Virus record (IMG/VR): IMGVR_UViG_3300043756_000033
Location: 1-42,653 of that record
Strand: one strand, 5' to 3'
DNA: 42,653 bases
Source of the DNA: a virus
Taxonomy: Duplodnaviria; Caudoviricetes
The notes under the pieces are model-generated. The model was not told the DNA's origin and ran no database searches. It saw only the letters and a program-made list of their open reading frames with translations. Below are positions 539 to 34,435 of the stretch, piece after piece. Position numbers and translations under genes: made by a program. How positions within the stretch are numbered: position 1 is the stretch's first letter; the number at the start of each line of letters is the position of its first letter.

Positions 539-706
539 TCAGTCCTTTTGTGGAACGAACCAAACGATGATCGGAAACAATGCCGCTACGATCACGCCAA
601 GGGTTTCCTCTGTCAGATGACCGAACAGGTTCTCGCCCCACACAACATCGATAATCTCGACCAGCGCGAGGATCAGCATTGTCAAGGATTTCTGCATACC
701 TGTCAT
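539..706 (-). CDS. Putative holin (55 aa, two hydrophobic segments); not in ORF track
   Basis: Hand translation: MTGMQKSLTMLILALVEIIDVVWGENLFGHLTEETLGVIVAALFPIIVWFVPQKD. Strong GGAGGT SD upstream. Confidence 0.6.
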   Translation of the reverse strand: MTGMQKSLTMLILALVEIIDVVWGENLFGHLTEETLGVIVAALFPIIVWFVPQKD

Positions 707-8872: not shown

Positions 8873-9034
8873 CTATCCTTCGTGGCTATCGATGCCGATG
8901 TTGCGGTCGCAGATGATGACGATCTCGCGCAACAGGTCTTTCAGTTCGGTCTGTCGTTTGGTGGACAGGCCGTGCAGCTTGGACTTGATCACGGTCGCAC
9001 AGTGGCGGATTTCCTTGAAGTCGTCCTCTGTCAT
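8873..9034 (-). CDS. Hypothetical protein (53 aa); not in ORF track
   Basis: MTEDDFKEIRHCATVIKSKLHGLSTKRQTELKDLLREIVIICDRNIGIDSHEG; TGATG overlap with the upstream stop. Confidence 0.6.
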   Translation of the reverse strand: MTEDDFKEIRHCATVIKSKLHGLSTKRQTELKDLLREIVIICDRNIGIDSHEG

Positions 9035-9540
9035 CAGTATCCCCTCTGTCTCATGCCAGCGGGAAAGCGAACCTCTTCACGCTGGACGTGGCGTCTGCCG
9101 TCAGCCACCTCGACCGGGATGCGGTATCGTGGATTGAGGAAGGCCCACAAGTGGTACTTGTTCGCTTCATCCGAGAGACGGCTTTCGGCCGGGTATATCT
9201 CGAACGCCTCGCACTCCTCGCCGACCAGTTGGTTCTTGATCAGTTGGCGGTGCCGCCAGTCGAACACGGGCGCACCATCGATCCTGCGGATGTTGATATG
9301 CGCCATCTCGCAGCCGAACGCTTCGTTCGTGAAGTAGCGCAGGCACACCTGATAAAGATCGTTGCGCCAGTAGTGGCAGCGTTCGTCGTCGCGCGCCAGC
9401 TTGGCGGCGGCCTCCTCGACGGTCGAACCGTCGTTCTCCGCTTGCAGTTCGGCGAACGCGCGATACCTTGGATCAAGATAGTCCCGAGGATCAACGTGCG
9501 CCTCCTGTAACGGCTTCCACTTGTAGGCCATTCCTCGCAT
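9034..9540 (-). CDS. DUF7694-like phage protein
   Basis: DWRHRQLIKNQLVGEECEAFEIYPAESRLSDEANKYHLW. The start is at 9540 or 9531, downstream of the promoter. Confidence 0.65.
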   Translation of the reverse strand: MRGMAYKWKPLQEAHVDPRDYLDPRYRAFAELQAENDGSTVEEAAAKLARDDERCHYWRNDLYQVCLRYFTNEAFGCEMAHINIRRIDGAPVFDWRHRQLIKNQLVGEECEAFEIYPAESRLSDEANKYHLWAFLNPRYRIPVEVADGRRHVQREEVRFPAGMRQRGY

Positions 9541-9544
9541 CCCT

Positions 9545-9558
9545 TTCACGATGTCAAA
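9545..9558 (-). promoter_or_regulatory. boxA-like leader element TTTGACATCGTGAA
   Basis: Identical 14-mer at 42467-42480. Both copies lie just downstream of minus-strand promoters. Confidence 0.5.
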
Positions 9559-9570
9559 CAACAATAGGAC

Positions 9571-9599
9571 ACCATAGCACATGATCGAACCAATGTCAA
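9571..9599 (-). promoter_or_regulatory. Sigma70-type promoter (leftward)
   Basis: TTGACA-N17-TATGGT with TGTGC immediately before the -10. Confidence 0.7.
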
Positions 9600-9633
9600 G
9601 CGAAAGAATGTACGTCTCTGTAAAGATAACCAC

Positions 9634-13735: not shown

Positions 13736-14125
13736 ATGGCCCGAGAGAACCGCCGTTTCACCCCCGCCAGATGGGCCGCTCTGGAGTGGTTCCACAAGTC
13801 GGAACTCGACCCCCTCTACATGCTGCGGGAGTACTGCCCGTCCAGCCGGATGGTCAACGTGATGATTGCGGAGGGCCAGCTAGAACGGGTCAGGACCAAT
13901 GTCATTTACCAGACGAAGCTGATCCTGACCCCGGCCGGGCATCAGGCCCTCGCCAGCAAGCACCTGCGGTTCAACCCACCGGGCGGGAAAGCCAGACGAT
14001 GGGCACGCATATTGCACCGCAGTAAACTGCTAGCACGCCAAGCCGCAGCGCGTCGGGCTGCTGAAGTGCGAGGTAGGTCAAGGCTATTGCCCCGGACACT
14101 GCAACCAGCAGAACTAGACGAATAG
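13736..14125 (+). CDS. Hypothetical protein (possible winged helix)
   Basis: LILTPAGHQAL resembles a wHTH wing. Its 3' end overlaps a convergent gene. Confidence 0.45.
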   Translation: MARENRRFTPARWAALEWFHKSELDPLYMLREYCPSSRMVNVMIAEGQLERVRTNVIYQTKLILTPAGHQALASKHLRFNPPGGKARRWARILHRSKLLARQAAARRAAEVRGRSRLLPRTLQPAELDE

Positions 14126-14309
14126 CCAGCACGGCGAACAGGACGTTCAGCGAGCCCATCACCGACGCCTTCCAAGCGGTGCGGTGGACGTACTCCAGCG
14201 CCTCCCGGCTAGGCGGCGTCGCCGTCGTCGTCGTCGGGGCCGAAGTCCACTGGCTCAGGGGCGGCGGCTGCGGCTGATCCTCCACCCTTCGCTCGCCGAC
14301 CACCTGCAT
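13971..14309 (-). CDS. Membrane protein (2-3 TM), last gene of the virion operon
   Basis: LNVLFAVLAIRLVLLVAVSGAIALTYLAL and LGVLAVYCGAICVPIVWL; AAGGA immediately before ATG 14309. Confidence 0.6.
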   Translation of the reverse strand: MQVVGERRVEDQPQPPPLSQWTSAPTTTTATPPSREALEYVHRTAWKASVMGSLNVLFAVLAIRLVLLVAVSGAIALTYLALQQPDALRLGVLAVYCGAICVPIVWLSRPVG

Positions 14310-14580
14310 CCTTGAACGCGGAGGCGTACTTCCTGACGGCCGATCCGGACTTTCGCTCATTGCCGCTTTCCTCTGCTCGCAGGACGATGAACGCCTGCTG
14401 GATGCGTGCGATTGCGGTCAGGGCTGCGATGCGCTCGCGGACGGTGACTTTCTCCACCTCCTCCGCGTCCTTGCCGCGCCCCTTCTTAACAGGCGGGGCC
14501 TCTAGGTCGTCAAGTAATCTGCTTACCTGCCGGTAGAGCCGCGCGTTGATCTGTAGCGGGTCGGCGTTGTCCTTGCTCAT
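14209..14580 (-). CDS. Hypothetical protein
   Basis: ATGA overlap with the upstream gene, GGAGG SD, helical, acidic C-terminus. Confidence 0.65.
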   Translation of the reverse strand: MSKDNADPLQINARLYRQVSRLLDDLEAPPVKKGRGKDAEEVEKVTVRERIAALTAIARIQQAFIVLRAEESGNERKSGSAVRKYASAFKDAGGRRAKGGGSAAAAAPEPVDFGPDDDDGDAA

Positions 14581-22054: not shown

Positions 22055-22449
22055 CAGAACGGAAACGTCCACGTAACCCTTGGCTGCACCGTTGGTGGCG
22101 GGGCGAACGTCTGCGCCCCGATGTAGTGCTCCATGTGGTTCTGGAACTGAAACCATGATCGTTCAACCGGGTCGTTCAGGTCAGTGTCTACCATGTTCTG
22201 GCCGACCCTCAAACCGACGTGCATGCTGTCGAAGTAGGTCGGGAAGTCGGCCAGCGCATCGTTGTGCGCCTGCTGGTGGTTCAGTTGCCACGGCCCGGCA
22301 GAGGCAAGCGCGAGCATCGGATCAACGAAGTACGGCACCACCGAGTAGCGTGTCAGCGGGGCCATGATGCCCAGCGCGTTGCGGTGCGCCATGGCGTGAT
22401 GGAACGTGAACGCCGGGTCGTCCAGATTGGTCAGGACGACGCTGCTCAT
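22051..22449 (-). CDS. His-motif protein
   Basis: HHAMAH, NHQQAH and NHMEH motifs; coupled overlaps. Confidence 0.7.
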   Translation of the reverse strand: MSSVVLTNLDDPAFTFHHAMAHRNALGIMAPLTRYSVVPYFVDPMLALASAGPWQLNHQQAHNDALADFPTYFDSMHVGLRVGQNMVDTDLNDPVERSWFQFQNHMEHYIGAQTFAPPPTVQPRVTWTFPFW

Positions 22450-22754
22450 TCGCCGCCATCGCCGCGACCGCGCACCGATCTGGAAAGCAGCGACGAACTC
22501 TCCTGCGCCGGGGCGCGGGTGTCGCTGGTGCCCATCGGGTCAAACCCTCGCGGGCTTATCCGGTCCATGCCGTAGTCGCTGGTCGGGCCATCGCCAAGCA
22601 GTCCTCTGGGACCGACACCGGGCGTCGTACCCATACGCAAAGGCCCGGCGACTGGCCTCCCTGACCGGAAGAAGCCGTCCGGGTGCTTGAAGTCGGCCAC
22701 GGGGTTTCGCTTGACGATTGGCCATTCGCCCTGTTTCCTCTCATGCTCTGCCAT
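22446..22754 (-). CDS. Hypothetical protein
   Basis: MAEHERKQGEWP...; TGATG overlap, GAGG SD. Confidence 0.6.
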   Translation of the reverse strand: MAEHERKQGEWPIVKRNPVADFKHPDGFFRSGRPVAGPLRMGTTPGVGPRGLLGDGPTSDYGMDRISPRGFDPMGTSDTRAPAQESSSLLSRSVRGRGDGGE

Positions 22755-22861
22755 CAGCGTTGCCTCTTTCGCTTTGCAGCGGCCTTGCGTCGCGCCTTGC
22801 GCAGATTGCGACGCGAAGCCCGCTTCTGCATCTTGGTCGGGTACGGTGAGGTGAGCGCCAT
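22754..22861 (-). CDS. Basic micro-protein (35 aa); not in ORF track
   Basis: MALTSPYPTKMQKRASRRNLRKARRKAAAKRKRQR; TGATG overlaps at both ends. Confidence 0.7.
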   Translation of the reverse strand: MALTSPYPTKMQKRASRRNLRKARRKAAAKRKRQR

Positions 22862-23064
22862 CAGTAGCGACCCTTGATGAAGCTGTTGAAGTATTGCCCC
22901 GGACTGGGGCTGTACGCCCAGCGTTCAACTTCGATTTGTTGGATGCCTTCGAGGACGTACAGGCCGCCGCCGCGCTGGAACGTCACGTAGGCAACCTCCT
23001 CCTCGTCGTCGTACTCGATGCGCGCAATCGCGCTGCTCGCGACCGGGTACGTCTGTATCGTCAT
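22861..23064 (-). CDS. KTSC-domain protein
   Basis: VASSAIARIEYD...VTFQRGG..Y...SPSPGQYFNSFIKGRY. Confidence 0.8.
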   Translation of the reverse strand: MTIQTYPVASSAIARIEYDDEEEVAYVTFQRGGGLYVLEGIQQIEVERWAYSPSPGQYFNSFIKGRY

Positions 23065-23140
23065 CGGTTCAGCTTGCGATAGACGTTGCGCATGACACGC
23101 CCTTGGTTCGGCTGAAGTCATCGTCCGGCATTAGCGCCTC

Positions 23141-23542
23141 CTACGGCGACGTGCCCTCGCTGCCGACCGGCTTGCGGGCACCAGCACCATTCTTCGCCTT
23201 CCTCTTCGCCGTGGCATTCTTGCCTCCTAGAAGCTGCAACCAGACGCGCCATGGAACGACTGCAAGCGGCTCTTGGCGATCACGCCGCAGGAAGAGCACG
23301 TCGTATTCGCCAAGCCACCGCTCAAGTAAAGCGAAACCGTTGCCTTTGCCGCGCGCCTTGACTTCGGCAACAAGCGGCGCTTCGTCTTTCCCTAGAGGAT
23401 ATATATCAACGTCATGACCGCTACTGCGAAAGTGAGTAGCACCAGAAAGAGGATAACGTTCCGCATGAATGCCAGCGTCCTTATGGGCGTTGACAATCTC
23501 CACCTCAGCCCGTGCGCCCTTCCTTCGCTGCGATGCGCTCAT
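23141..23542 (-). CDS. PD-(D/E)xK Holliday-junction resolvase-like nuclease
   Basis: SQRRKGARAEVEI...PLSGA...DVDI...AEVKAR. Confidence 0.8.
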   Translation of the reverse strand: MSASQRRKGARAEVEIVNAHKDAGIHAERYPLSGATHFRSSGHDVDIYPLGKDEAPLVAEVKARGKGNGFALLERWLGEYDVLFLRRDRQEPLAVVPWRVWLQLLGGKNATAKRKAKNGAGARKPVGSEGTSP

Positions 23543-23709
23543 CGTTTTGCTCCTCTGTGGGGTCCGGTCCTACCTCCCGGCCTTGGTGTCCGGCCGGTTC
23601 GTCCGCGTCCGCGACGGCCACGGCTCCAATCACTGGGCCAGCCGTCATCGCTCCACGGCATTCTCACCACGGGGCCACGGCCCCGTGGACAATGATGTTT
23701 GCGGGCCAT
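23539..23709 (-). CDS. Arg/Gly-rich micro-protein (56 aa); not in ORF track
   Basis: MARKHHCPRGRGPVVRMPWSDDGWPSDWSRGRRGRGRTGRTPRPGGRTGPHRGAKR; GGAGG SD; TGATG and ATGA overlaps. Confidence 0.7.
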   Translation of the reverse strand: MARKHHCPRGRGPVVRMPWSDDGWPSDWSRGRRGRGRTGRTPRPGGRTGPHRGAKR

Positions 23710-23858
23710 CACCGCCTCCCGATACGAACGCGACGATTGGCCTTTCGATTACCGGGCACATTCGGCCGCATCCTGACCCGGCTGGACGGACGCATAGTCC
23801 CGAACCGTCCCGCCGGATCGACACGGCTACGTGGCCCGAGGTTGATACCGCGTGCCAT
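23709..23858 (-). CDS. Arg-rich micro-protein (49 aa); not in ORF track
   Basis: MARGINLGPRSRVDPAGRFGTMRPSSRVRMRPNVPGNRKANRRVRIGRR; GGAGG SD; ATG directly follows the upstream TGA. Confidence 0.7.
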   Translation of the reverse strand: MARGINLGPRSRVDPAGRFGTMRPSSRVRMRPNVPGNRKANRRVRIGRR

Positions 23859-23978
23859 TCAAAGCCTCCGACCTTTTCGATACGAGAATAGCCGTGGCTT
23901 CCACTTGGGTAGACGCCACGACTTGGTTTTGAGGGCTCTGCGCAGGTTCTTGATGGGGCGCGAGCCGTAGCGGGGCAT
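23859..23978 (-). CDS. Arg/Lys-rich micro-protein (39 aa); not in ORF track
   Basis: MPRYGSRPIKNLRRALKTKSWRLPKWKPRLFSYRKGRRL; GGAGG SD; TAATG overlap. Confidence 0.7.
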   Translation of the reverse strand: MPRYGSRPIKNLRRALKTKSWRLPKWKPRLFSYRKGRRL

Positions 23979-24055
23979 TATCCGTGCCTCCGCAGCTTAC
24001 GGGCTCGCATCCTGCGGGCGCGGCGAGTTCTCTTCAGTCGCTTCAGGCGAGCCAT
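23978..24055 (-). CDS. Arg-rich micro-protein (25 aa); not in ORF track
   Basis: MARLKRLKRTRRARRMRARKLRRHG; AGGAG SD. Confidence 0.7.
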   Translation of the reverse strand: MARLKRLKRTRRARRMRARKLRRHG

Positions 24056-24064
24056 CGCTCGCTC

Positions 24065-24109
24065 CTACCGACGACGAGAACGGCGACCACGACGTCTACG
24101 ACGTGCCAT
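24065..24109 (-). CDS. Protamine-like micro-peptide (14 aa); not in ORF track
   Basis: MARRRRRGRRSRRR; GAGGAG SD 8 nt upstream; 7 of 10 Arg codons are CGT. Confidence 0.65.
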   Translation of the reverse strand: MARRRRRGRRSRRR

Positions 24110-24170
24110 CTGCTCTTCTCCTCTTGCGAGTGTGTGGGGCACCATTAACGGGGCGGAGCCTACACCCGCC

Positions 24171-25799
24171 TCATGCGCCGAACAAGGTACGCAATTCGCC
24201 CGTGATGTGCAGCCGCTCAATGGTGAAGTCGGGGGACAGGCTCTTCAGGTCCACCGCGATGCTGATGCCAGCGCCTTCGATGGGCTGCGGCTCGAATGCG
24301 AAGTTCGCGCCGGGCGTCAGTTCAAAGCCGACGTCCTGAGTGCCGCCGGGCACACCGCCGCTCTCGCACTTCACGCTACCGGTGAACGACACGCCCTGCC
24401 CGCTGTTGTCATGGACTTCCATAAACAGGCGCTTGAAGTTCTTGATGGTCAGCATCGTTGCTGGTTCCTGCTCCGTACCACGCAGCGCCTTGGTCGAGAG
24501 CCGTTTCGGCAGTGCCGGGTCCGGTTGTGCAAACAGTTGGTAAAGCGAAGTCCCGTCCGTGCCGTAGGGCGTGCAGATGCTATCCTGCTCGTAATAGCCG
24601 ATGTTGGTCAGTTCGAGGTTCTGCGACGCCACCGACCAGAAGTCCTGACCCTTGATCGGATGGTACATGAGTAAAAGGCTTCGCGTTACACCCCACGGAT
24701 CAGTAAAGCGGCCATTGGCGAGGAGGACGCGGAAACCGAACATCGATGCGGTCGCCATGGTCGGATAATACAGCGAGGTGTCCAGCGTGTTGTAGACGTT
24801 GGTCGTCTTGCTGCTGATGTTCTGGCTGTCGCCACCTGTTATCAAGTAAATCCCTTCACCACCGAAATGCACGAAGTGGCGGCCCAGCCGACCGACCGGG
24901 CGCGGGAAACGGTGACCCACCTGCGGATCAATGTTCGCGTAGTTCATGTTGGTGACGAAAGGCGCAACGTCGGTGCCTTGGCCGCTTAGCTGCACGTTCG
25001 ATATCAGGTCGATGCTGCTGTCACCGAAGCAGAACAGATAGCCTGCGCTGGCCGCAAGGTCCATGAAGCTGTAGGTCAGCTTGTTGCCGAAGTATCCGAA
25101 TGATCCTCCACCGTTGGCCGTCGAAAAGTCAGCCCCGTTGCTCGGAGCAGAGAAAGAAACAACATCCTTGCCAGAGACGAACAGGCGTTCCTGATACACC
25201 TCCATCGCATAGATGCCGGGGAGGCCAGTCGGCATCGGTGTCGGGACGGACGGACCCTCAAGCGCGTCGGTGAGCCAGTCCGGAGCCTGCTCGCCCGGCG
25301 ACGTGAGCACCTGCCCGTCCCATGCGTAAAGCCCGTTCGGCGAGCCGAAGAGGACGCCACCGTTCTGCCCTAGAACCGATCCGAAGAACCGGGGCCGCCA
25401 CACAACAGCGTCGGCCCAGTAGTTGGGAGGGATCGGCGACCAGATATCCCCGATATCGACTGTCGTTCCGAGGTCGAGGTCAACCTGAACAACGTGTCCG
25501 TTGGAGAGGAACATCCAAGCCAGACGTCCCCCGTAAGGTGGACCGGGCTTCTCGAACTGGGGTGTAGGATACCCGATGAAGCCGAAGAACATGCGCAGGA
25601 TGGTTGTCCCGGCGGGTGCGGTGTAGATCGCGGGACCATGGCCCCAGCATGAGCGGAGGTTACCGGCACCGATTGCGAACAGGTTTTCATTCCACCACTC
25701 CTCCTCGTCGCCGATACTGCCACGTCGCCCCTCTTGGTTCAGTCCCTGCCACGCCTGTAGCGTCTTGACAACTGGCTGGTTGGTGCTCTGGACAGGCAT
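24171..25799 (-). CDS. Tail nozzle / DNA-stabilisation protein (tail tubular B or P22 gp10-like)
   Basis: 542 aa, beta-rich (WQGLNQ, MEVYQERLFVSG...FSAP); lies between the adaptor and the ejection genes. Confidence 0.65.
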   Translation of the reverse strand: MPVQSTNQPVVKTLQAWQGLNQEGRRGSIGDEEEWWNENLFAIGAGNLRSCWGHGPAIYTAPAGTTILRMFFGFIGYPTPQFEKPGPPYGGRLAWMFLSNGHVVQVDLDLGTTVDIGDIWSPIPPNYWADAVVWRPRFFGSVLGQNGGVLFGSPNGLYAWDGQVLTSPGEQAPDWLTDALEGPSVPTPMPTGLPGIYAMEVYQERLFVSGKDVVSFSAPSNGADFSTANGGGSFGYFGNKLTYSFMDLAASAGYLFCFGDSSIDLISNVQLSGQGTDVAPFVTNMNYANIDPQVGHRFPRPVGRLGRHFVHFGGEGIYLITGGDSQNISSKTTNVYNTLDTSLYYPTMATASMFGFRVLLANGRFTDPWGVTRSLLLMYHPIKGQDFWSVASQNLELTNIGYYEQDSICTPYGTDGTSLYQLFAQPDPALPKRLSTKALRGTEQEPATMLTIKNFKRLFMEVHDNSGQGVSFTGSVKCESGGVPGGTQDVGFELTPGANFAFEPQPIEGAGISIAVDLKSLSPDFTIERLHITGELRTLFGA

Positions 25800-25800
25800 T

Positions 25801-26562
25801 TCACTTGACCTCCCGCGTCCTCTTGCGGCGACGGTCGAGCCCGTATTGCATCTGCCTGACCTTCACCGGCACGCCCGGCGGTGCGACGATCATGATCTGC
25901 ACCGCCTCCACGACGGGCGGCGGTGGCGGAGTGACGCCGCCGCTCGCCCATGTATCGATCAGTTCCTCCGGTCTGCCGTCGTAAGAACTGATATCGCAGG
26001 GACCGACGCCGGGCACGGTGTGTGGGGTCGGGCCGGACTGCCCATCGGTGAACTGCCACAGCCACGGCTTGGCCCAACTCTTCTGCCACGTCGGCGAGGT
26101 ATTGTACGATGCCAGCCACAGCCGCCGTTCGCCGAGGAAGGTGTCAAGATTATCACCTAACGCGTCCTTGGCGGTGTTGCCGCTGTAGAGCACGCATTCG
26201 CCCGGGCGGCCCAGTTCAGTCTCCACCGCGCTGATCCACTGGTGAACGTTCGCGAGCGACATGGTGTCGCTGCCGTTGTCCTCCCAGTCGAGGCAGAACA
26301 GTTCGTCGGGGTCAGGCGAGGCGAAGGCCATGAAGTTATCCACCTGCGCCGTGACGTCGCTGCCATCGGCGAAATGGTAGGCGCCCCAGCTAAGCCCGGC
26401 CGCCTTGGCCGCCTGCTGTTGCGCGACATAGGTCGGGTCCGTGTAGCTTGAGCCCTGCGTAGCCTTGTAGATGCAGCCGACGAAACCTTCGTTGTAGACT
26501 TCATCGTAATTCGACGCCGGGTCCCAGTGCGATAGATCGATGACCTGCGGATGGATATCCAT
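25801..26562 (-). CDS. GH25 lysozyme (muramidase)
   Basis: IDLSHWD, YKATQG, GAYHF, LDWED, LWLASY, WLWQFTD motifs. Confidence 0.92.
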   Translation of the reverse strand: MDIHPQVIDLSHWDPASNYDEVYNEGFVGCIYKATQGSSYTDPTYVAQQQAAKAAGLSWGAYHFADGSDVTAQVDNFMAFASPDPDELFCLDWEDNGSDTMSLANVHQWISAVETELGRPGECVLYSGNTAKDALGDNLDTFLGERRLWLASYNTSPTWQKSWAKPWLWQFTDGQSGPTPHTVPGVGPCDISSYDGRPEELIDTWASGGVTPPPPPVVEAVQIMIVAPPGVPVKVRQMQYGLDRRRKRTREVK

Positions 26563-26590
26563 GTTATTTCCCCAAGGCTGAAACGATGTG

Positions 26591-26926
26591 TCAAGTCTTT
26601 CGCTTGTCGCCTAGCCCGATGGCATCGCGTACTTCCTTCGATATGCTGTTCAGCACCTCCTGCCCGGCCGGGCTGGCGGCCCACTCGTCGCTCTCCTCCG
26701 TCGTCGCATCGAACTCGCCCTCCGCGACGCGCTTGGCGAATGCCTTCAGGCCCGCTTTCGTCAACTCCATGTGCAACTGCGTGATGGGGCAGTCGTAGGT
26801 GTCGGCATAGTCATCGAACTCGCCTGTTGCCGCGCGCTTGGCGAACGCCTCATACACGTCGGCCTTACCGTGCTCATGCCCGGCCTTACGCAACTCTGCG
26901 GCAAGTCTATCTCTTGTCCGTTCCAT
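26591..26926 (-). CDS. Hypothetical protein with internal repeat
   Basis: AFAKRAATGEFD / AFAKRVAEGEFD; GAGGAG SD; TGATG overlap. Confidence 0.65.
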   Translation of the reverse strand: MERTRDRLAAELRKAGHEHGKADVYEAFAKRAATGEFDDYADTYDCPITQLHMELTKAGLKAFAKRVAEGEFDATTEESDEWAASPAGQEVLNSISKEVRDAIGLGDKRKT

Positions 26927-27618
26927 CACGCACTCCTCATTGTCGCACCGTAGGGGTTCTGGATCATTTGCGGGCACACCACGCTTGCGCACATGGGCAT
27001 CTCGGTATTGAAGAGCACGGCCATCGCCTGCGCGTCCTGCGCCCGCTGCTGCTGCAACAGGCAGAGCGTTGCCGCCCAGTACGCGACGGCATCGCTCCAC
27101 GGATAGGGTATCGGGTCCGGGTCGTTGTCGGTCAGAAGCGGCAGCGGAATGCAGGTGCAATCGACGTCCATTTCCATGTCGCTGGTCGGGATGGGCGCGA
27201 GGTACATGCGGCCCAGCGGCCCCGCGCCATACTGCGCCCACCAGCCCGGGTCGCTGATGGTGCCCATGAAGGTGCCGTTGTAGATGCGGAAGCGCGCCTG
27301 AAAGTCGGTCCAGACGACACGTCGCCACGTCGGTTTCCAGCCGCCCTTGCCGATGGCGATGGCGAGCGAGCGAACGTGCAGCACCTCCTGCACGCCGGGC
27401 ATCTGCTCCTGCACCAAGGCGGTCCAGTCGCTGAACGGATAGACTTCCAGTCCTTTAACGGTTCTTGTGCCTCTTGGCAGGACGCGGAGACACGCGCTTA
27501 CCGCCGCGATGCGTCGGCGGCTCCGGTTGATGTAGTTCGTCAGCGTCGGCTTGCTGAAGAACTGCCCCTGACTGTCGTTGAGGAAGTTCTGCGTCTCCGT
27601 GATGTAGCGTTCCAGCAT
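26926..27618 (-). CDS. Head-tail adaptor protein
   Basis: TQNFLND...LTNYINRSRRRIA...YLAPIP...IPYPWSDAVAYWAA is the adaptor pattern; position after the capsid gene. Confidence 0.7.
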   Translation of the reverse strand: MLERYITETQNFLNDSQGQFFSKPTLTNYINRSRRRIAAVSACLRVLPRGTRTVKGLEVYPFSDWTALVQEQMPGVQEVLHVRSLAIAIGKGGWKPTWRRVVWTDFQARFRIYNGTFMGTISDPGWWAQYGAGPLGRMYLAPIPTSDMEMDVDCTCIPLPLLTDNDPDPIPYPWSDAVAYWAATLCLLQQQRAQDAQAMAVLFNTEMPMCASVVCPQMIQNPYGATMRSA

Positions 27619-28512: not shown

Positions 28513-29544
28513 CTACGGAGGCGGCGGACCACCCGGGAACCCGGTTGCGCCGCCCGTGATGCCATCAATGATAACGCCGGTCGAGGGCTTGGAGCAAACG
28601 AGGTTGAGCGCCGTCAGGGTCAGTCCGACCGACGCGATCTGGCCTTGCGGGATGGTAGAATACCAGCCAGTCCAAGCGAAATTAGCGTCCTCATGGATAA
28701 CCATCGTAATGTACTTCGAATTGAAGCCGAAAGCTGTTCCGACTGGACAGTTGAGGTCGAAGAAAATCGGCGTATCGCCAAGCAATAAACCTCGAAAACC
28801 TGAGTTAACGGGGTCATCCTTGCCCCACCGAGACGACGGGTCATTGTTGTAACGCTCCACGGTCATGAAGTCGGTGAGGAGCGTGGTCCAGTCCTCAACC
28901 GACATGACCACGAAGTCGAGTGCTTCGCCGCCGCTGTTCTTAACAGCCTTGAGTAACGTCGGGATGAACGCGGCGCGCGTCAGGACGTTCCCTGCGCCGC
29001 CGATGTGAAGTCCTTCCCATGTCGGGTACGTCGCGCGGTCGAGGCCGCCGTAGACGCCCGTGTCGCCGTAGGCGTCGTGAAGTGAAAACATTTGCAGCGG
29101 GTTCGTGATCTGCGGGCCGAACAGTGCGCCCGAAAGGGACGCGAGCGCACTGTTCTTCATGTCGTTCAGCTTGAGCATCAGGCGCGAGGCAACGGCTATC
29201 GCGTCCTGCGTGACAAGTTGCTCTAGGCCAAGCGACGTGACCGGCGTGGCCAACGCGCACATATTGAACTCTGCATTCAGCGTTGCCGCCACGTCAGCAG
29301 GCAGGTTGAACTGCCCGGCTGGTCCGATCCACGATGACTGGACGTACTGGCCAGTCTGGACCGGCTGGGTATAGGGGCTGACGCCGCCAGAGGCGCGGAT
29401 GGCATTTCTGAGGAGCAAGGCCAGCAGCGGGTTCTGCCTGTAAAGCAAAACAACGACCATCTGTGCGAACACACGTCGCACGGTTGCTTCCAACTCAAGG
29501 CCGATTGGTCCCGAGGGGATGATGCCTGCGCCAAGGATGGGCAT
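28513..29544 (-). CDS. Major capsid protein
   Basis: 343 aa; YGGLDRATYPTW motif; position after the scaffold; GGAG SD. Confidence 0.8.
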   Translation of the reverse strand: MPILGAGIIPSGPIGLELEATVRRVFAQMVVVLLYRQNPLLALLLRNAIRASGGVSPYTQPVQTGQYVQSSWIGPAGQFNLPADVAATLNAEFNMCALATPVTSLGLEQLVTQDAIAVASRLMLKLNDMKNSALASLSGALFGPQITNPLQMFSLHDAYGDTGVYGGLDRATYPTWEGLHIGGAGNVLTRAAFIPTLLKAVKNSGGEALDFVVMSVEDWTTLLTDFMTVERYNNDPSSRWGKDDPVNSGFRGLLLGDTPIFFDLNCPVGTAFGFNSKYITMVIHEDANFAWTGWYSTIPQGQIASVGLTLTALNLVCSKPSTGVIIDGITGGATGFPGGPPPP

Positions 29545-30118: not shown

Positions 30119-30139
30119 TGTCAAGTTATTCGCTTGTCA
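30119..30139. promoter_or_regulatory. Palindromic site TGTCAAG-ttattcg-CTTGTCA
   Basis: Full consensus copy directly upstream of the scaffold and capsid genes. Confidence 0.6.
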
Positions 30140-30322
30140 GTTGGAATTGCCCTTGCCGATGATGCTGGGCTGTAGCGGCACGCCGCCATCAGGCTTCGGC
30201 ACCACGCGCGGGATCGCGCCCCACTCCGACGTCTCGCTCTGGGTGTCCACCTGCAAGATCGTGCGCGGCGGTGTTTCCGGCGGTGCGGTGATGGGCGGGT
30301 CGTAGCTGCGGTTCTGTGCCAT
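30137..30322 (-). CDS. Hypothetical protein
   Basis: 61 aa, GGAG SD, in the head operon. Confidence 0.65.
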   Translation of the reverse strand: MAQNRSYDPPITAPPETPPRTILQVDTQSETSEWGAIPRVVPKPDGGVPLQPSIIGKGNSN

Positions 30323-30843: not shown

Positions 30844-32580
30844 TTACTTGCCACGTCCACCCCCTCCCCCCTGCTTGCGGTGCATCTGGCCCCGGTCGGG
30901 GAGGTGCAGGACGTCGCGAAGCAGGCCCTCCTGCTTCTCCTGTTGCGCGGCCTGCGCCTGCGCTTTCTGGCGCTGCCGCAGCCGTGCCAAGAGCAATTCC
31001 GCACCCGGCGGATGCAGCATGTGGATCAGGTCCTCGCTGTCCACCGCGCCCGCCCGGGCCAGCGCAATGGCAAGCTGCCGGTTGTCCTCCGCGAAGGCCG
31101 GGCTCGCCGAATGGCTATCGACCTGCACTTGGAACGGTTCGGGCAGGTCCTCCAGCGTGAACTCCGTGCCCTTGTCCGTGGTATAGATCGAGGGGTCCAT
31201 GGCCTGCATCAGCCGCAATGAGAGGAAGCCGCTTTGAGCCAGTTGCCGTTCGATACGGGCCGCTTGGTCAATCAGGTTCGGCGACGACGTTCGCACAAGC
31301 GTCTGCGCATGCACCCCCGCACGAACCCCCGGTTCGCCCTGTCCGCTCATGACAGGCGAAAAACCAGACGCCTCATCGAAGAGTTTAAAAAGGAACGACA
31401 ACTCCTCAAGATAATGCTCTGGCGGCGGCTCAACCAGCTTCGACGCCTTGGCATTGGGATTGGGGTCGTTGAGAAAGCCGCCCTCGTTGATGATCTTGAA
31501 ATACTCTTCCTCAGTGACCGAAGTGAACCCTGAGAACACCTGCGGCGCGTTGACGTTGCGGTCCCACATGACCTTGAGGTCGCGCAGCCGCTTGTTGAGC
31601 ACGTCCTGCAACATCTGCACGTCGGCGATGACGGAGCGGCCCCAGAAGTAGCCCGGCGTCGGGATGCTCTGCACCTTCACGAACGGGTGGTGTCCCGGGA
31701 TTTTGCCGATGTTGCGCCGTGTGTCGTCGCCTTCGATGATGATCGGCTCCGCGCCGTAGATCGCCTGAATGCAGGTATAATCACCGTCACGGTCGCGGTC
31801 CTTGAGCCAGACTTCGCAGTGCTTGACCGTAGGGGCCAGCTTGCGTTGCGGTCGCCATGGGGTAGGTACGGGGAAAACGTTGACGACGCCAGCGGCTGTC
31901 GGGTTTGCACCCACGTCACCGAGGGGCTGTAGTCCGCCGACGACCATCTGGTGAAAGTAGGTCGGCTCCTCCTCATCGCGCTCCGTCCTCCTCGCCTCCA
32001 GTATCTTGGCCATGATTTCCTTTTTGCGCGGGTGGTTCATTTCGTCCAGCTTGGAGCGCACCTTGCTGACGGTCGGGTAGCTGACGTGAACGAACGCCTC
32101 CTGCTCATCGATGTCGAGCGTCGTTTCCGAGAGCACGCCGATGTTCTGCGGATGCACGTTGTGCAGCTTGAAGCCCAAGTCATACGGGATGTGCTTGAGG
32201 AAGTATGTCCCGTTGACCAGCGACCACACCACGGCCTCGCTGAACGCGATATCGCTGTCGCTCTGGCGATAGTCGGCGGATAGCTTCTCGCCGATCAACT
32301 GCGCGCGGGTCAGCAGGCTCTCGTCGCTCTCGCCGCTGTCGAACAGGATTTGGAAGCGAACGTCGGTCGGCTGCATCAGGAAGCCCGCGAGCCGCTTGAT
32401 GAACGGCCCGGTCTTGTTGTAGATCGCTGCCGCCGCCGAACTGGTCCCCATGTAGAAATACTGCGCGGCACGGGTATAGACCATGCCGCGCTCTTCGCTT
32501 GACGCCATGCACTCGTCAATGATTTCCTTGACCCACATGGTGAAAGGAAGTTCGTCGCTGTCTTTCGGGATCAGGAGCAT
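30844..32580 (-). CDS. Portal protein
   Basis: 578 aa; HHPFVKV...PGYFWGRS...QDVLNKRL...SGFSPVMSGQGEPGVRAG; Q-rich C-terminal barrel helix. Confidence 0.85.
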   Translation of the reverse strand: MLLIPKDSDELPFTMWVKEIIDECMASSEERGMVYTRAAQYFYMGTSSAAAAIYNKTGPFIKRLAGFLMQPTDVRFQILFDSGESDESLLTRAQLIGEKLSADYRQSDSDIAFSEAVVWSLVNGTYFLKHIPYDLGFKLHNVHPQNIGVLSETTLDIDEQEAFVHVSYPTVSKVRSKLDEMNHPRKKEIMAKILEARRTERDEEEPTYFHQMVVGGLQPLGDVGANPTAAGVVNVFPVPTPWRPQRKLAPTVKHCEVWLKDRDRDGDYTCIQAIYGAEPIIIEGDDTRRNIGKIPGHHPFVKVQSIPTPGYFWGRSVIADVQMLQDVLNKRLRDLKVMWDRNVNAPQVFSGFTSVTEEEYFKIINEGGFLNDPNPNAKASKLVEPPPEHYLEELSFLFKLFDEASGFSPVMSGQGEPGVRAGVHAQTLVRTSSPNLIDQAARIERQLAQSGFLSLRLMQAMDPSIYTTDKGTEFTLEDLPEPFQVQVDSHSASPAFAEDNRQLAIALARAGAVDSEDLIHMLHPPGAELLLARLRQRQKAQAQAAQQEKQEGLLRDVLHLPDRGQMHRKQGGGGGRGK

Positions 32581-33780: not shown

Positions 33781-34059
33781 TCATTGCATCTGGCCAAGCT
33801 TGCAGGGAACTTTCAGTTCGCGCACGTCGTCCGGCCGCCCCGCCACGGTGAGGCTGACCCGGATGTGGCACTCCTCGCATTCGAGGACGTAAGCGCCGCA
33901 GCGTGGGGCCGGGTAGGGCAGGCTGGCGATGCAGGAGCACTGCTTGCCGTCCGTGCAGTCAATCATCATGCCGTTCGGATAGTTCGGGTCCGGCTGGCAT
34001 TGCGGCTCCCGTCCGCTGTCGAGAAAAGTAATCCTGAATTTTGGCTTCTCGCTCGTCAT
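33781..34059 (-). CDS. Cys-rich hypothetical protein
   Basis: MTSEKPKF...LPYPAPRCG...CEEC...AGRPDD; AGGTG SD. Confidence 0.6.
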   Translation of the reverse strand: MTSEKPKFRITFLDSGREPQCQPDPNYPNGMMIDCTDGKQCSCIASLPYPAPRCGAYVLECEECHIRVSLTVAGRPDDVRELKVPCKLGQMQ

Positions 34060-34435
34060 GTGTTTCACCTGTCTTGGGTCCGACGCGCCAGCTTTCCGGC
34101 GTCTTGATCTGGCCAAGTACCGGCTTCCATAGATGCAGGCAGTTGGCGTGGCAGTTGACATACTCGCTCTTCGGCGGGTGGAATTGTATCACGGTCTCCT
34201 CTTCGTCCCAGAACAAGTTTTTCACATAACACATTTCGTCCCAGTTCGGCAGCCGGTGCATCACCGACACGCTGACGTGCTCCCAACTCTCGTCGTAGCT
34301 GGCGATGATGTGCAGCCGCCCGCCGCGTGGTCCGAAGATATCGAACGCGCCGCACGGGCCGTAGCTGTCCGGCGTGGCGTACGCGCCATGCCTGATGCGC
34401 CCGTCCGTCAGTTTGCTTGGTAAGGTTTTTCGCAT
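33959..34435 (-). CDS. DUF7694-like phage protein
   Basis: WEHVSVS...PNWDEMCYVKNLFWDEEETVIQFHPPKSEYVNCHANCLHLW. Confidence 0.75.
   Translation of the reverse strand: MRKTLPSKLTDGRIRHGAYATPDSYGPCGAFDIFGPRGGRLHIIASYDESWEHVSVSVMHRLPNWDEMCYVKNLFWDEEETVIQFHPPKSEYVNCHANCLHLWKPVLGQIKTPESWRVGPKTGETHDEREAKIQDYFSRQRTGAAMPAGPELSERHDD

Follow-up and report, generated by a model that had tools for sequence, protein, structure and literature searches.

What is encoded in the interval between a tail nozzle gene and a resolvase gene that seems empty but is tiled on one strand by tiny arginine-rich open reading frames (ORFs)? Such an interval lies in the tailed-phage record IMGVR_UViG_3300043756_000033 of IMG/VR (Caudoviricetes), of which we analyzed positions 1 to 42,653 (42,653 nt; hereafter, the window). 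An earlier reading of this DNA, referred to below as the original prediction, took the ORFs for a protamine-like cassette that neutralizes or condenses DNA in the capsid or in the infected cell. The genes themselves are well supported by sequence comparison, and we infer their function, with loading of the peptides into the phage head as the favored reading.

Seven micro-genes behind the nozzle gene

The five minus-strand ORFs proposed for the interval, here called micro-genes A to E, were verified in the sequence with their coordinates, translations, and lengths (14, 25, 39, 49, and 56 aa). Equally accurate were the Shine-Dalgarno (SD) sequences (AGGAG, AGGAG, GGAGG, GGAGG, and GGAGG for A to E in turn) and the 9-nt gap behind A, followed by TAATG, TGA-ATG, TGATG, and ATGA junctions. 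The interval itself, given as ~570 bp, spans ~630 nt from the nozzle stop (24171) to the resolvase start (23542), a 61-nt leader included. All five genes proved real, but the count rises to seven, since two further members (F and G) lie downstream. Together, the seven micro-genes encode 246 residues with a net charge of +95; the individual peptides range from +10 to +15 in net charge, from 23 to 71% in Arg content, and from -1.1 to -3.0 in grand average of hydropathy. They are listed here with their occurrence in 76 comparable loci and the proportions of nonsynonymous (pN) and synonymous (pS) differences within each family, both described below.

24065..24109, minus strand: micro-gene A, 14 aa, 71% Arg, net charge +10, variable poly-Arg type; SD AGGAG
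23978..24055, minus strand: micro-gene B, 25 aa, net charge +14, conserved TRRARRIRAR-type core; 64/76 loci; pN 0.23, pS 0.75
23859..23978, minus strand: micro-gene C, 39 aa, net charge +15, aromatic/Pro motif; 71/76 loci; pN 0.39, pS 0.72
23709..23858, minus strand: micro-gene D, 49 aa, net charge +14; at least 73/76 loci; pN 0.31, pS 0.69
23539..23709, minus strand: micro-gene E, 56 aa, net charge +13; at least 72/76 loci; pN 0.31, pS 0.69
23131..23217, minus strand: micro-gene F, 28 aa, net charge +14, MVLVPASR motif; SD AGGAGG; 21/76 loci; pN 0.24, pS 0.74
22754..22861, minus strand: micro-gene G, 35 aa, net charge +15, Q..A.RRNLRKAR motif; 43/76 loci; pN 0.36, pS 0.76

Short peptides similar to A open the cassette in many relatives. 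C is the most hydrophobic member (bulky hydrophobic fraction, 0.28), D carries a near-invariant N-terminal LGPRSRVDPAG motif, and E is characterized by the conserved motifs PW..D..P.DW and [ST]PRPG.RTGP. Micro-gene F overlaps the 3′ end of the resolvase gene in another frame, and its place in the block differs between genomes. Coupled to its stop is a 20-aa nonbasic ORF with a good SD (23069-23131, minus strand) that is absent from the closest relative, L001. Micro-gene G has a weak SD and is joined by TGATG to the gene of a KTSC-domain protein. A further Arg-rich ORF (22540-22725), which overlaps the gene of the downstream protein H in another frame and recurs in relatives, is best read as a shadow of the conserved codons of H and was set aside.

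Conservation of the cassette and constraint on its peptides

Nozzle searches yielded 82 viral loci and two genome contigs, which together with the window make 85 loci; 76 of them, including a few near-duplicates, extend at least 900 nt downstream of the nozzle gene. A strict caller (SD of at least 5 nt, 10 to 75 aa, and R+K of at least 28%) detected at least one ORF in every one of the 76 loci and averaged 2.88 calls over the first 900 nt past the nozzle gene, as compared with 0.049 per tile upstream (533 tiles) and 0.047 in 380 mononucleotide shuffles, which amounts to an enrichment of ~60-fold; on the antisense strand it found none in any of the 76 loci. The synteny comparison envisaged in the original prediction thus detected the cassette in all testable relatives. 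With a relaxed caller, cassettes held a median of 5 micro-genes (range, 3 to 8) with a median net charge of +66. The order B-C-D-E was kept in 57 of 59 loci, and 23 of the 76 loci carry a further type of micro-gene that the window lacks. These motif counts describe the set and are no independent test of it, the patterns having been derived from the same sequences. An independent search by peptide E alone retrieved 27 metagenome loci; each of the 18 with sufficient upstream sequence has the nozzle gene there, and the other 9 carry at most 615 nt of it. Two loci from single-peptide searching, L015 and L016, were rejected as chance matches in unrelated AT-rich coding DNA. A profile of peptide E compared with 1.84 billion representatives gave 14 matches; among the 8 that were read, 7 are relatives of E, some with longer N termini resembling overcalled starts, and the remaining one was discarded as an unrelated repeat protein with a short aromatic motif in common. 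Two descriptive traits of the window did not generalize to the same degree. The stepwise rise in length holds in the window but is strict in only 11 of 75 loci, and the M-A-R start opens 198 of 409 called micro-genes, with M-P-R in 28 of 409.

Frames, SDs, and junctions were preserved across nozzle identities of 48 to 82%. All seven families entered in the codon test, a set that does not include micro-gene A, exhibited pS values near saturation (0.69 to 0.76) and pN values of 0.19 to 0.39, with the third codon position as the most variable, much like the nozzle gene used as a reference (pS, 0.66; pN, 0.22; third position likewise most variable). This pattern places the constraint on the peptide sequence. 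Saturation of pS makes the pN/pS ratios understate the constraint, and the D and E sets each include three misassigned rows. Constraint also covers the nonbasic motifs, i.e., the N terminus of D, the two tryptophans and the Pro-Arg-Pro-Gly stretch of E, and the aromatic/Pro motif of C. Their conservation points to specific binding partners for C, D, and E, for which simple charge neutralization would have no need. Collectively, these comparisons give good support to the micro-genes as genuine, conserved protein-coding genes in a late virion gene block.

Family searches

Pfam returned no match for 19 proteins at E values up to 10, NCBIfam gave a single chance match (E 0.22), no PHROG matched the micro-gene peptides, and PDB profile searches, including those with B and G, produced nothing significant, negatives that are limited by the poor treatment of biased sequences by the HMMER filters and, for the 14-aa peptide A, by the size limit of both the family scans and the codon test. 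The ESM Atlas held no usable match for E and, for G, only unnamed clusters at 0.82 to 0.84, below evidence level. The 43 database relatives of D are either unnamed or "hypothetical protein," and a fusion (Rosetta-stone) check, in which 8000 candidates were scored, uncovered no relative longer than D itself, which is weak evidence. Mimicry of ribosomal proteins (bL34, eL39, eL41, bS21, and bS22) was considered and rejected upon lack of Pfam, NCBIfam, or PDB matches. The kinship with protamines, baculovirus P6.9, or adenovirus mu that had been proposed for the peptides likewise finds no support in these searches. To the extent that profiles can tell, the peptides belong to none of the protamine, P6.9, J, and ribosomal-protein families, and the M-A-R start most plausibly reflects convergence. 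Our literature search, whose coverage left out most subscription papers, found no description of a multigene cassette of stand-alone polycations of 13 to 60 aa in tailed phages.

RNA structure in the leader and in a sister clade

Upstream of the cassette lies the following element.

24110..24170, minus strand: leader, 61 nt; a 3-bp hairpin with a GCAA loop (24121-24130) overlaps the SD of micro-gene A

The motif GAGAAGAG occurs in 34 of 83 leaders and is preceded by a stem of 3 to 4 bp in 31 of these 34, a count made without a shuffle control. The stem varies (CTC/GAG, CCC/GGG, and CCA/TGG), and the loop is GCAA or GAAA in 17 of the 31. The whole leader of the window folds no better than shuffles (z 0.66), and the evidence for this hairpin as a conserved element of the clade is weak. 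In one lineage (L043, L050, L051, L053, L061, L065, L068, and L076), a longer conserved leader stem-loop occupies the place that micro-gene A has in other lineages.

The GenBank relatives MW202753 and MW202825, whose capsid protein is 36 to 37% identical to that of the window, have no gap after the nozzle gene. In both, two 13-aa Lys/Arg ORFs, unannotated but led by strong SDs, come behind the portal gene and a gene of 54 aa, before the scaffold/capsid genes, and distant from the annotated holin and lysin genes; the annotation places antisense ORFs across these micro-genes. They belong to a distant, abundant, and large sister clade (at least 598 confirmed matches) with a GC content of 39 to 52%, in which Lys replaces Arg. 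Among 80 loci fetched, 56 reach the region, and two 13-aa ORFs are present in 46 of them, one in 8, and none in 2. The sister 13-mers are similar to the opening peptide or two of the window-clade cassettes, a low-complexity likeness that does not prove descent.

Between the two 13-aa ORFs, the sister loci bear an RNA element.

L090 4798-4880 (plus strand), L091 25791-25873 (minus strand), and sister loci L092-L171 and L200-L319: tetraloop hairpin and H-type pseudoknot

Over 40 distinct spacers, 98.2% of the cells are paired, with 59 double changes; none of 500 shuffles scored as high, and slid controls reached 39 to 69%. The spacers were motif selected and the structure was read from the alignment, both of which favor the structure. 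At least 120 viral contigs match the pseudoknot pattern, with an M-A-R-K start closely downstream in 84 of 120 matches; one match that was checked, L206, is due to chance. Neither the window nor either GenBank record contains an Rfam match that reaches the gathering score, and the matches in four sister loci are due to chance. A covariance model of the pseudoknot (R1), compared with 60 sources, hit only the two sister-clade records and nothing in the window or in 56 loci of its clade. The pseudoknot is a candidate new phage RNA element.

Other features of the sister clade were recorded alongside. In L246 (230-440), the micro-gene pair and pseudoknot are followed by a different gene than in most sister loci. 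Small extended head-module proteins of 54 to 61 aa are encoded at L090 4573-4737 and 5546-5731 and are highly conserved in the clade, and elsewhere in the two GenBank relatives, further small basic proteins of 75 and 49 aa are found at L090 25407-25634 and L091 10537-10686, respectively.

Basic peptides loaded into the head as the favored reading

The position in the virion block in two clades, the head-module site in the sister clade, the coupled translation, and the charge lead us to regard the products as abundant late nucleic-acid-binding peptides. The reading that we favor, at a probability that we put near an even balance, is that they enter the head during assembly, bind the DNA, and neutralize it in part, with the motifs of C to E serving as anchors. 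In this scheme, the peptides would be made late from the structural transcript, in amounts linked through coupled translation, and would enter the procapsid with the scaffold or internal proteins, since the motor pumps DNA in afterwards. Phosphate charge would be screened by the poly-Arg parts of the set (A, B, F, G, and the C to E tails), and the conserved aromatic/Pro motifs found in C, D, and E would attach the peptides to a virion protein. Screening could only be partial, because full neutralization needs ~900 sets of the seven peptides (~27 MDa, about what the DNA itself weighs); with a set for every capsid subunit, about half the charge would be screened if T=7, which is assumed here. 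In all 76 loci, the cassette comes after the nozzle gene and before internal-protein-like genes, and the location of the sister-clade peptides in the head module fits a capsid-linked role. Of the proposed protamine-like DNA-neutralizing cassette, the conserved genes, the virion block, and the size and charge typical of nucleic-acid binders are supported, whereas protamine kinship and any meaning of the length pattern are not. The accompanying premise that tailed phages rely on polyamines and cations only is too strong: lysines of ~1000 T4 internal proteins contact the phosphates of packaged DNA (PMC3012670). A complex prediction with two copies of the capsid protein and peptide E (score 0.00, mark 0.32) speaks neither for nor against binding, and the fold model of the capsid protein is too poor (predicted local distance difference test [pLDDT], 52) for its inner-surface charge to be read.

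Several observations weigh against a place in the virion. The presence of a resolvase gene and a KTSC gene inside the block means that position is no proof of a virion protein. Motor-packaged tailed phages are reported to form a cluster separate from that of viruses relying on basic domains for packing (PMC7096446). No shared T4-like cleavable targeting sequence is visible in the peptides beyond the M-A-R start of 198 of 409, which is too short to be told from start-codon context. Among the 58 scanned ORFs, there was no kinase or protease that could free the DNA. The conserved RNA structure near the first genes fits an RNA-binding or regulatory role equally well. As to the support drawn from the sister clade, the kinship of its 13-mers with peptide A is a low-complexity likeness only, and homology of C, D, E, and H to its 54- and 61-aa head proteins was rejected at a profile probability of <1%.

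Rival functions

The main rival, clearly less probable but still a serious competitor, holds that the peptides act inside the cell as late nucleic-acid binders that compact or shield progeny DNA ahead of packaging or, as arginine-rich-motif RNA binders, tune late translation via the leader hairpin or the pseudoknot. The resolvase and KTSC genes in the same block suit this role, and the Arg-rich motif of phage N does bind the boxB hairpin (PMC11480772). The hairpin over the first SD, with its GCAA or GAAA loop, speaks for such a binder, but it has just 3 to 4 bp, 49 of the 83 leaders lack it, and the window leader folds like shuffles. The covarying pseudoknot with M-A-R-K starts behind it would also fit, although model R1 did not find it in the window's clade. 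A single regulator would moreover not require 5 to 8 genes, and a structured leader is also expected for abundant structural peptides with tuned amounts. We consider it improbable that the peptides are directed against the host, as effectors that enter with the DNA or are produced late and that each jam a separate target such as the ribosome exit tunnel, RNA polymerase, or a DNA-sensing defense enzyme. Every family keeps its own invariant nonbasic motif across saturated synonymous distance, as expected for ligands of a conserved protein, the block directly precedes ejection-protein-like genes, and C and E may resemble proline/arginine-rich ribosome inhibitors. Counter-defense genes are usually variable and patchy, however, whereas B to E are near universal and fixed in order, and no ribosomal-protein or PDB family match was obtained. 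T4 IPI, which blocks GmrSD, provides a precedent for such effectors (PMC3012670).

A role in lysis, raised in the original prediction as cationic outer-membrane disruptors standing in for spanins in the manner of phiKT gp28, is weakened by location and hydrophobicity to the point that we regard it as quite unlikely, though no spanin was found either: the gene strand holds no ORF with a lipobox and an SD, and no spanin candidate. All seven peptides are cationic, and an endolysin gene lies near the cassette in the window genome; this proximity is, however, unique to the window: a GH25 homologue occurs within ~5 kb of the nozzle gene in 1 of 85 loci, the window itself (GH25 being the only class scanned). 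Two peptides are borderline for an amphipathic helix with a hydrophobic face, C (28% bulky hydrophobic residues; helical moment, 0.95) and G (0.11 and 0.86, respectively), while A, B, D, E, and F range from 0 to 0.20 and from 0.49 to 0.74 (values without a gp28 benchmark), so that bulky hydrophobic residues make up no more than 20% of any of the seven peptides except C. The gp28 disruptin is a predicted amphipathic helix encoded between the endolysin and holin genes (10.1101/515445), whereas the holin-like membrane ORFs of the window (539-706 and 13971-14360, minus strand) are >8 kb from the cassette and far from the endolysin gene, in a survey of lysis genes limited by a linear, ~82% complete record. 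The sister-clade peptides, too, sit in the head module, distant from the lysis genes of that clade. Least probable of all, to the point of being negligible, is that the ORFs are mere by-products of a GC-rich spacer or noncoding RNA. CGN codons are indeed frequent at 62% GC, and standard gene callers overlook most micro-genes, but the ~60-fold enrichment, the codon-position pattern with saturated pS, the frames, SDs, and junctions kept at 48 to 82% nozzle identity, the lack of an Rfam match, and the Lys-rich version in a clade of 39 to 52% GC all argue against it.

Likeness to known systems

If head loading holds, the peptides would work like phiX174 J, T4 internal proteins, or adenovirus VII/mu without belonging to those families. 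In phiX174 J, a small aromatic anchor lies beside the basic part, an arrangement comparable with that of C to E. J is a single gene of a single-stranded DNA (ssDNA), T=1 phage with packaging coupled to DNA synthesis, whereas the cassette has 3 to 8 genes in a terminase-packaged double-stranded DNA (dsDNA) podovirus and no sequence match to J. The lambdoid N peptide combines an Arg-rich stretch with a small purine-loop hairpin nearby, but it forms one domain within a larger early antiterminator, unlike the stand-alone late peptides of the window, and B and G have no PDB match. In microviruses, most of the capsid charge comes from two short R-rich virion proteins, J and H, of which J is a separately encoded Arg/Lys-rich peptide of <40 aa (PMC7096446). 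The T4 internal proteins share small size, loading into the prohead of a tailed dsDNA phage, and basic residues that touch DNA (PMC3012670), but they have a capsid-targeting sequence, form a highly variable set, and include IPI, a folded 76-aa antirestriction protein; the cassette peptides are 13 to 60 aa, Arg-rich, probably unfolded, and conserved, with no such leader visible. Small Arg-rich polycations are also found in protamines, in baculovirus P6.9, which is switched by phosphorylation (PMC6163548), and in adenovirus, in which several of them (VII, V, and mu) bind the DNA core together (PMC4189039). These systems are eukaryotic, with release by protease cleavage or phosphorylation; a Ser/Thr-Pro-Arg sequence is conserved in peptide E, but the scanned ORFs of the window include no such enzyme.

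Three other phage systems bear comparison. The phiKT gp28 disruptin is a small cationic peptide of a podovirus without spanins (10.1101/515445), but it is an amphipathic helix in a lysis cassette, while the window peptides are mostly hydrophilic, Gly/Pro-rich, and unlinked to lysis genes. The gp4 capsid staple of Patience and Adjutor (54 aa in Adjutor) is a small extended protein that threads between capsid subunits (PMC11965321) and could serve as a model for binding by the C to E motifs or by H; it differs in being a single gene of actinobacteriophages, and is not described as poly-Arg in the available part of that source; the window peptides have no sequence match in PDB. In phi24B, Lys/Arg-rich flexible parts of the capsid and portal proteins are the likely DNA contacts, and the available part of the report describes no separate basic peptides (10.64898/2026.04.10.717836). 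Terminases of the phi24B group are weakly similar to that of the window.

Tailed phages are the standard example of bare DNA pumped into a shell with its charge screened by ions and polyamines, to which the T4 internal proteins are a known partial exception. More tentatively than the favored reading itself, we suggest that a large uncultured podovirus lineage may pack a peptide-coated nucleoprotein core, by means of separately encoded polycations of 13 to 60 residues, and not salt-screened naked DNA. The kit would have grown from two genes in the sister clade (34 to 36 kb) to as many as eight or more in the window's clade (42 to 43 kb), with amounts set by a structured mRNA leader, as a bacterial-virus counterpart of the adenovirus core. 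If true, such a multigene Arg-rich kit would be a different solution to the charge of packaged DNA and would allow a direct test of the effect of counter-ions on capsid pressure, stability, and ejection. Because of their small size, the peptides can be synthesized, which makes DNA, RNA, and membrane assays possible without a cultured host. The contrast between 717 database relatives of the 102-aa protein H and 43 of the near-universal peptide D exposes an annotation blind spot, and trypsin-based proteomics would miss such peptides, so that similar genes are possibly hidden in other phages. Should the function differ, a clade-wide set of new sequence-specific basic peptides still calls for explanation.

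Genomic setting

The source record is linear and ~82% complete by estimate, the window has a GC content of 62%, and its genes include those for terminase, portal, an HK97-like capsid protein, a GH25 endolysin, and tail fibers. The neighbors of the cassette and the capsid gene are as follows.

28513..29544, minus strand: major capsid protein, HK97-like; phrog_9953 E 6e-20, PDB 7f38 profile match E 1.3e-5
25801..26562, minus strand: GH25 endolysin; PF01183
24171..25799, minus strand: tail nozzle gene, 542 aa, the fixed upstream neighbor of the cassette
23141..23542, minus strand: PD-(D/E)XK/RusA-like resolvase; phrog_244 E 7e-11, PF24608 slightly below cutoff
22861..23064, minus strand: KTSC-domain gene, 67 aa; PF13619 E 9e-13; optional member of the block
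22446..22754, minus strand: protein H, 102 aa, Gly/Pro-rich, near neutral, conserved in the alignment; last gene of the block

The nozzle assignment of the original prediction is confirmed by the AlphaFold model (pLDDT, 88.6), which Foldseek matches best to tail/nozzle chains of the podoviruses Pa223, VP1, GP4, and P22 (E 1.5e-18 to 1.9e-12). Behind micro-gene E, the resolvase slot is exchangeable: unrelated ORFs occupy it in L002, L004, L005, and L010, while the peptides persist. By eye, we take these ORFs to resemble RuvC, VRR-NUC, or HNH nucleases, and L002 has an extra HNH-like ORF in the slot, its type likewise assigned by eye. Within the window's resolvase gene, another frame contains a 24-aa strongly hydrophobic ORF (23392-23466, minus strand), with a similar ORF in L001; its third positions are a run of T in spite of the 62% GC genome, and it may be an overprinted membrane or lysis peptide. 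The 120 relatives of protein H that are listed are all unnamed or hypothetical and without Pfam domains; H is a candidate internal or capsid-stapling protein. The genes downstream of the block encode low-complexity, weakly acidic products that seem to resemble ejection proteins, one of which bears a phage tail lysozyme domain. The region 22400-26700 yielded no sigma-70 promoter, and its two terminator-like sites, both inside the nozzle gene, are no more numerous than in shuffles.

The capsid protein matches only 2 of 50,697 phage records, both environmental, and no cultured relative was thus found; no comparable cassette was found in Hydrogenobaculum phage 1, whose terminase is 31% identical. 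The block is present on two contigs in genomes labeled Xanthobacteraceae and Caulobacteraceae, and one relative of protein H carries the label Stellaceae. Such binned phage contigs, labeled through metagenome-assembled genomes, hint weakly at a possibly alphaproteobacterial host.

Elsewhere in the window, short basic C-terminal tails occur in the portal protein (30844-30900), in a protein at 27455-27520, and in the endolysin (25801-25850, minus strand), and several relatives have similar Gly/Arg-rich ends 3.9 to 5.2 kb upstream of the nozzle gene. The head module includes a small extended protein of the 54- to 61-aa class (30137-30322, minus strand), and two DUF7694 genes (9034-9633 and 33959-34435, minus strand) reside in this one genome.

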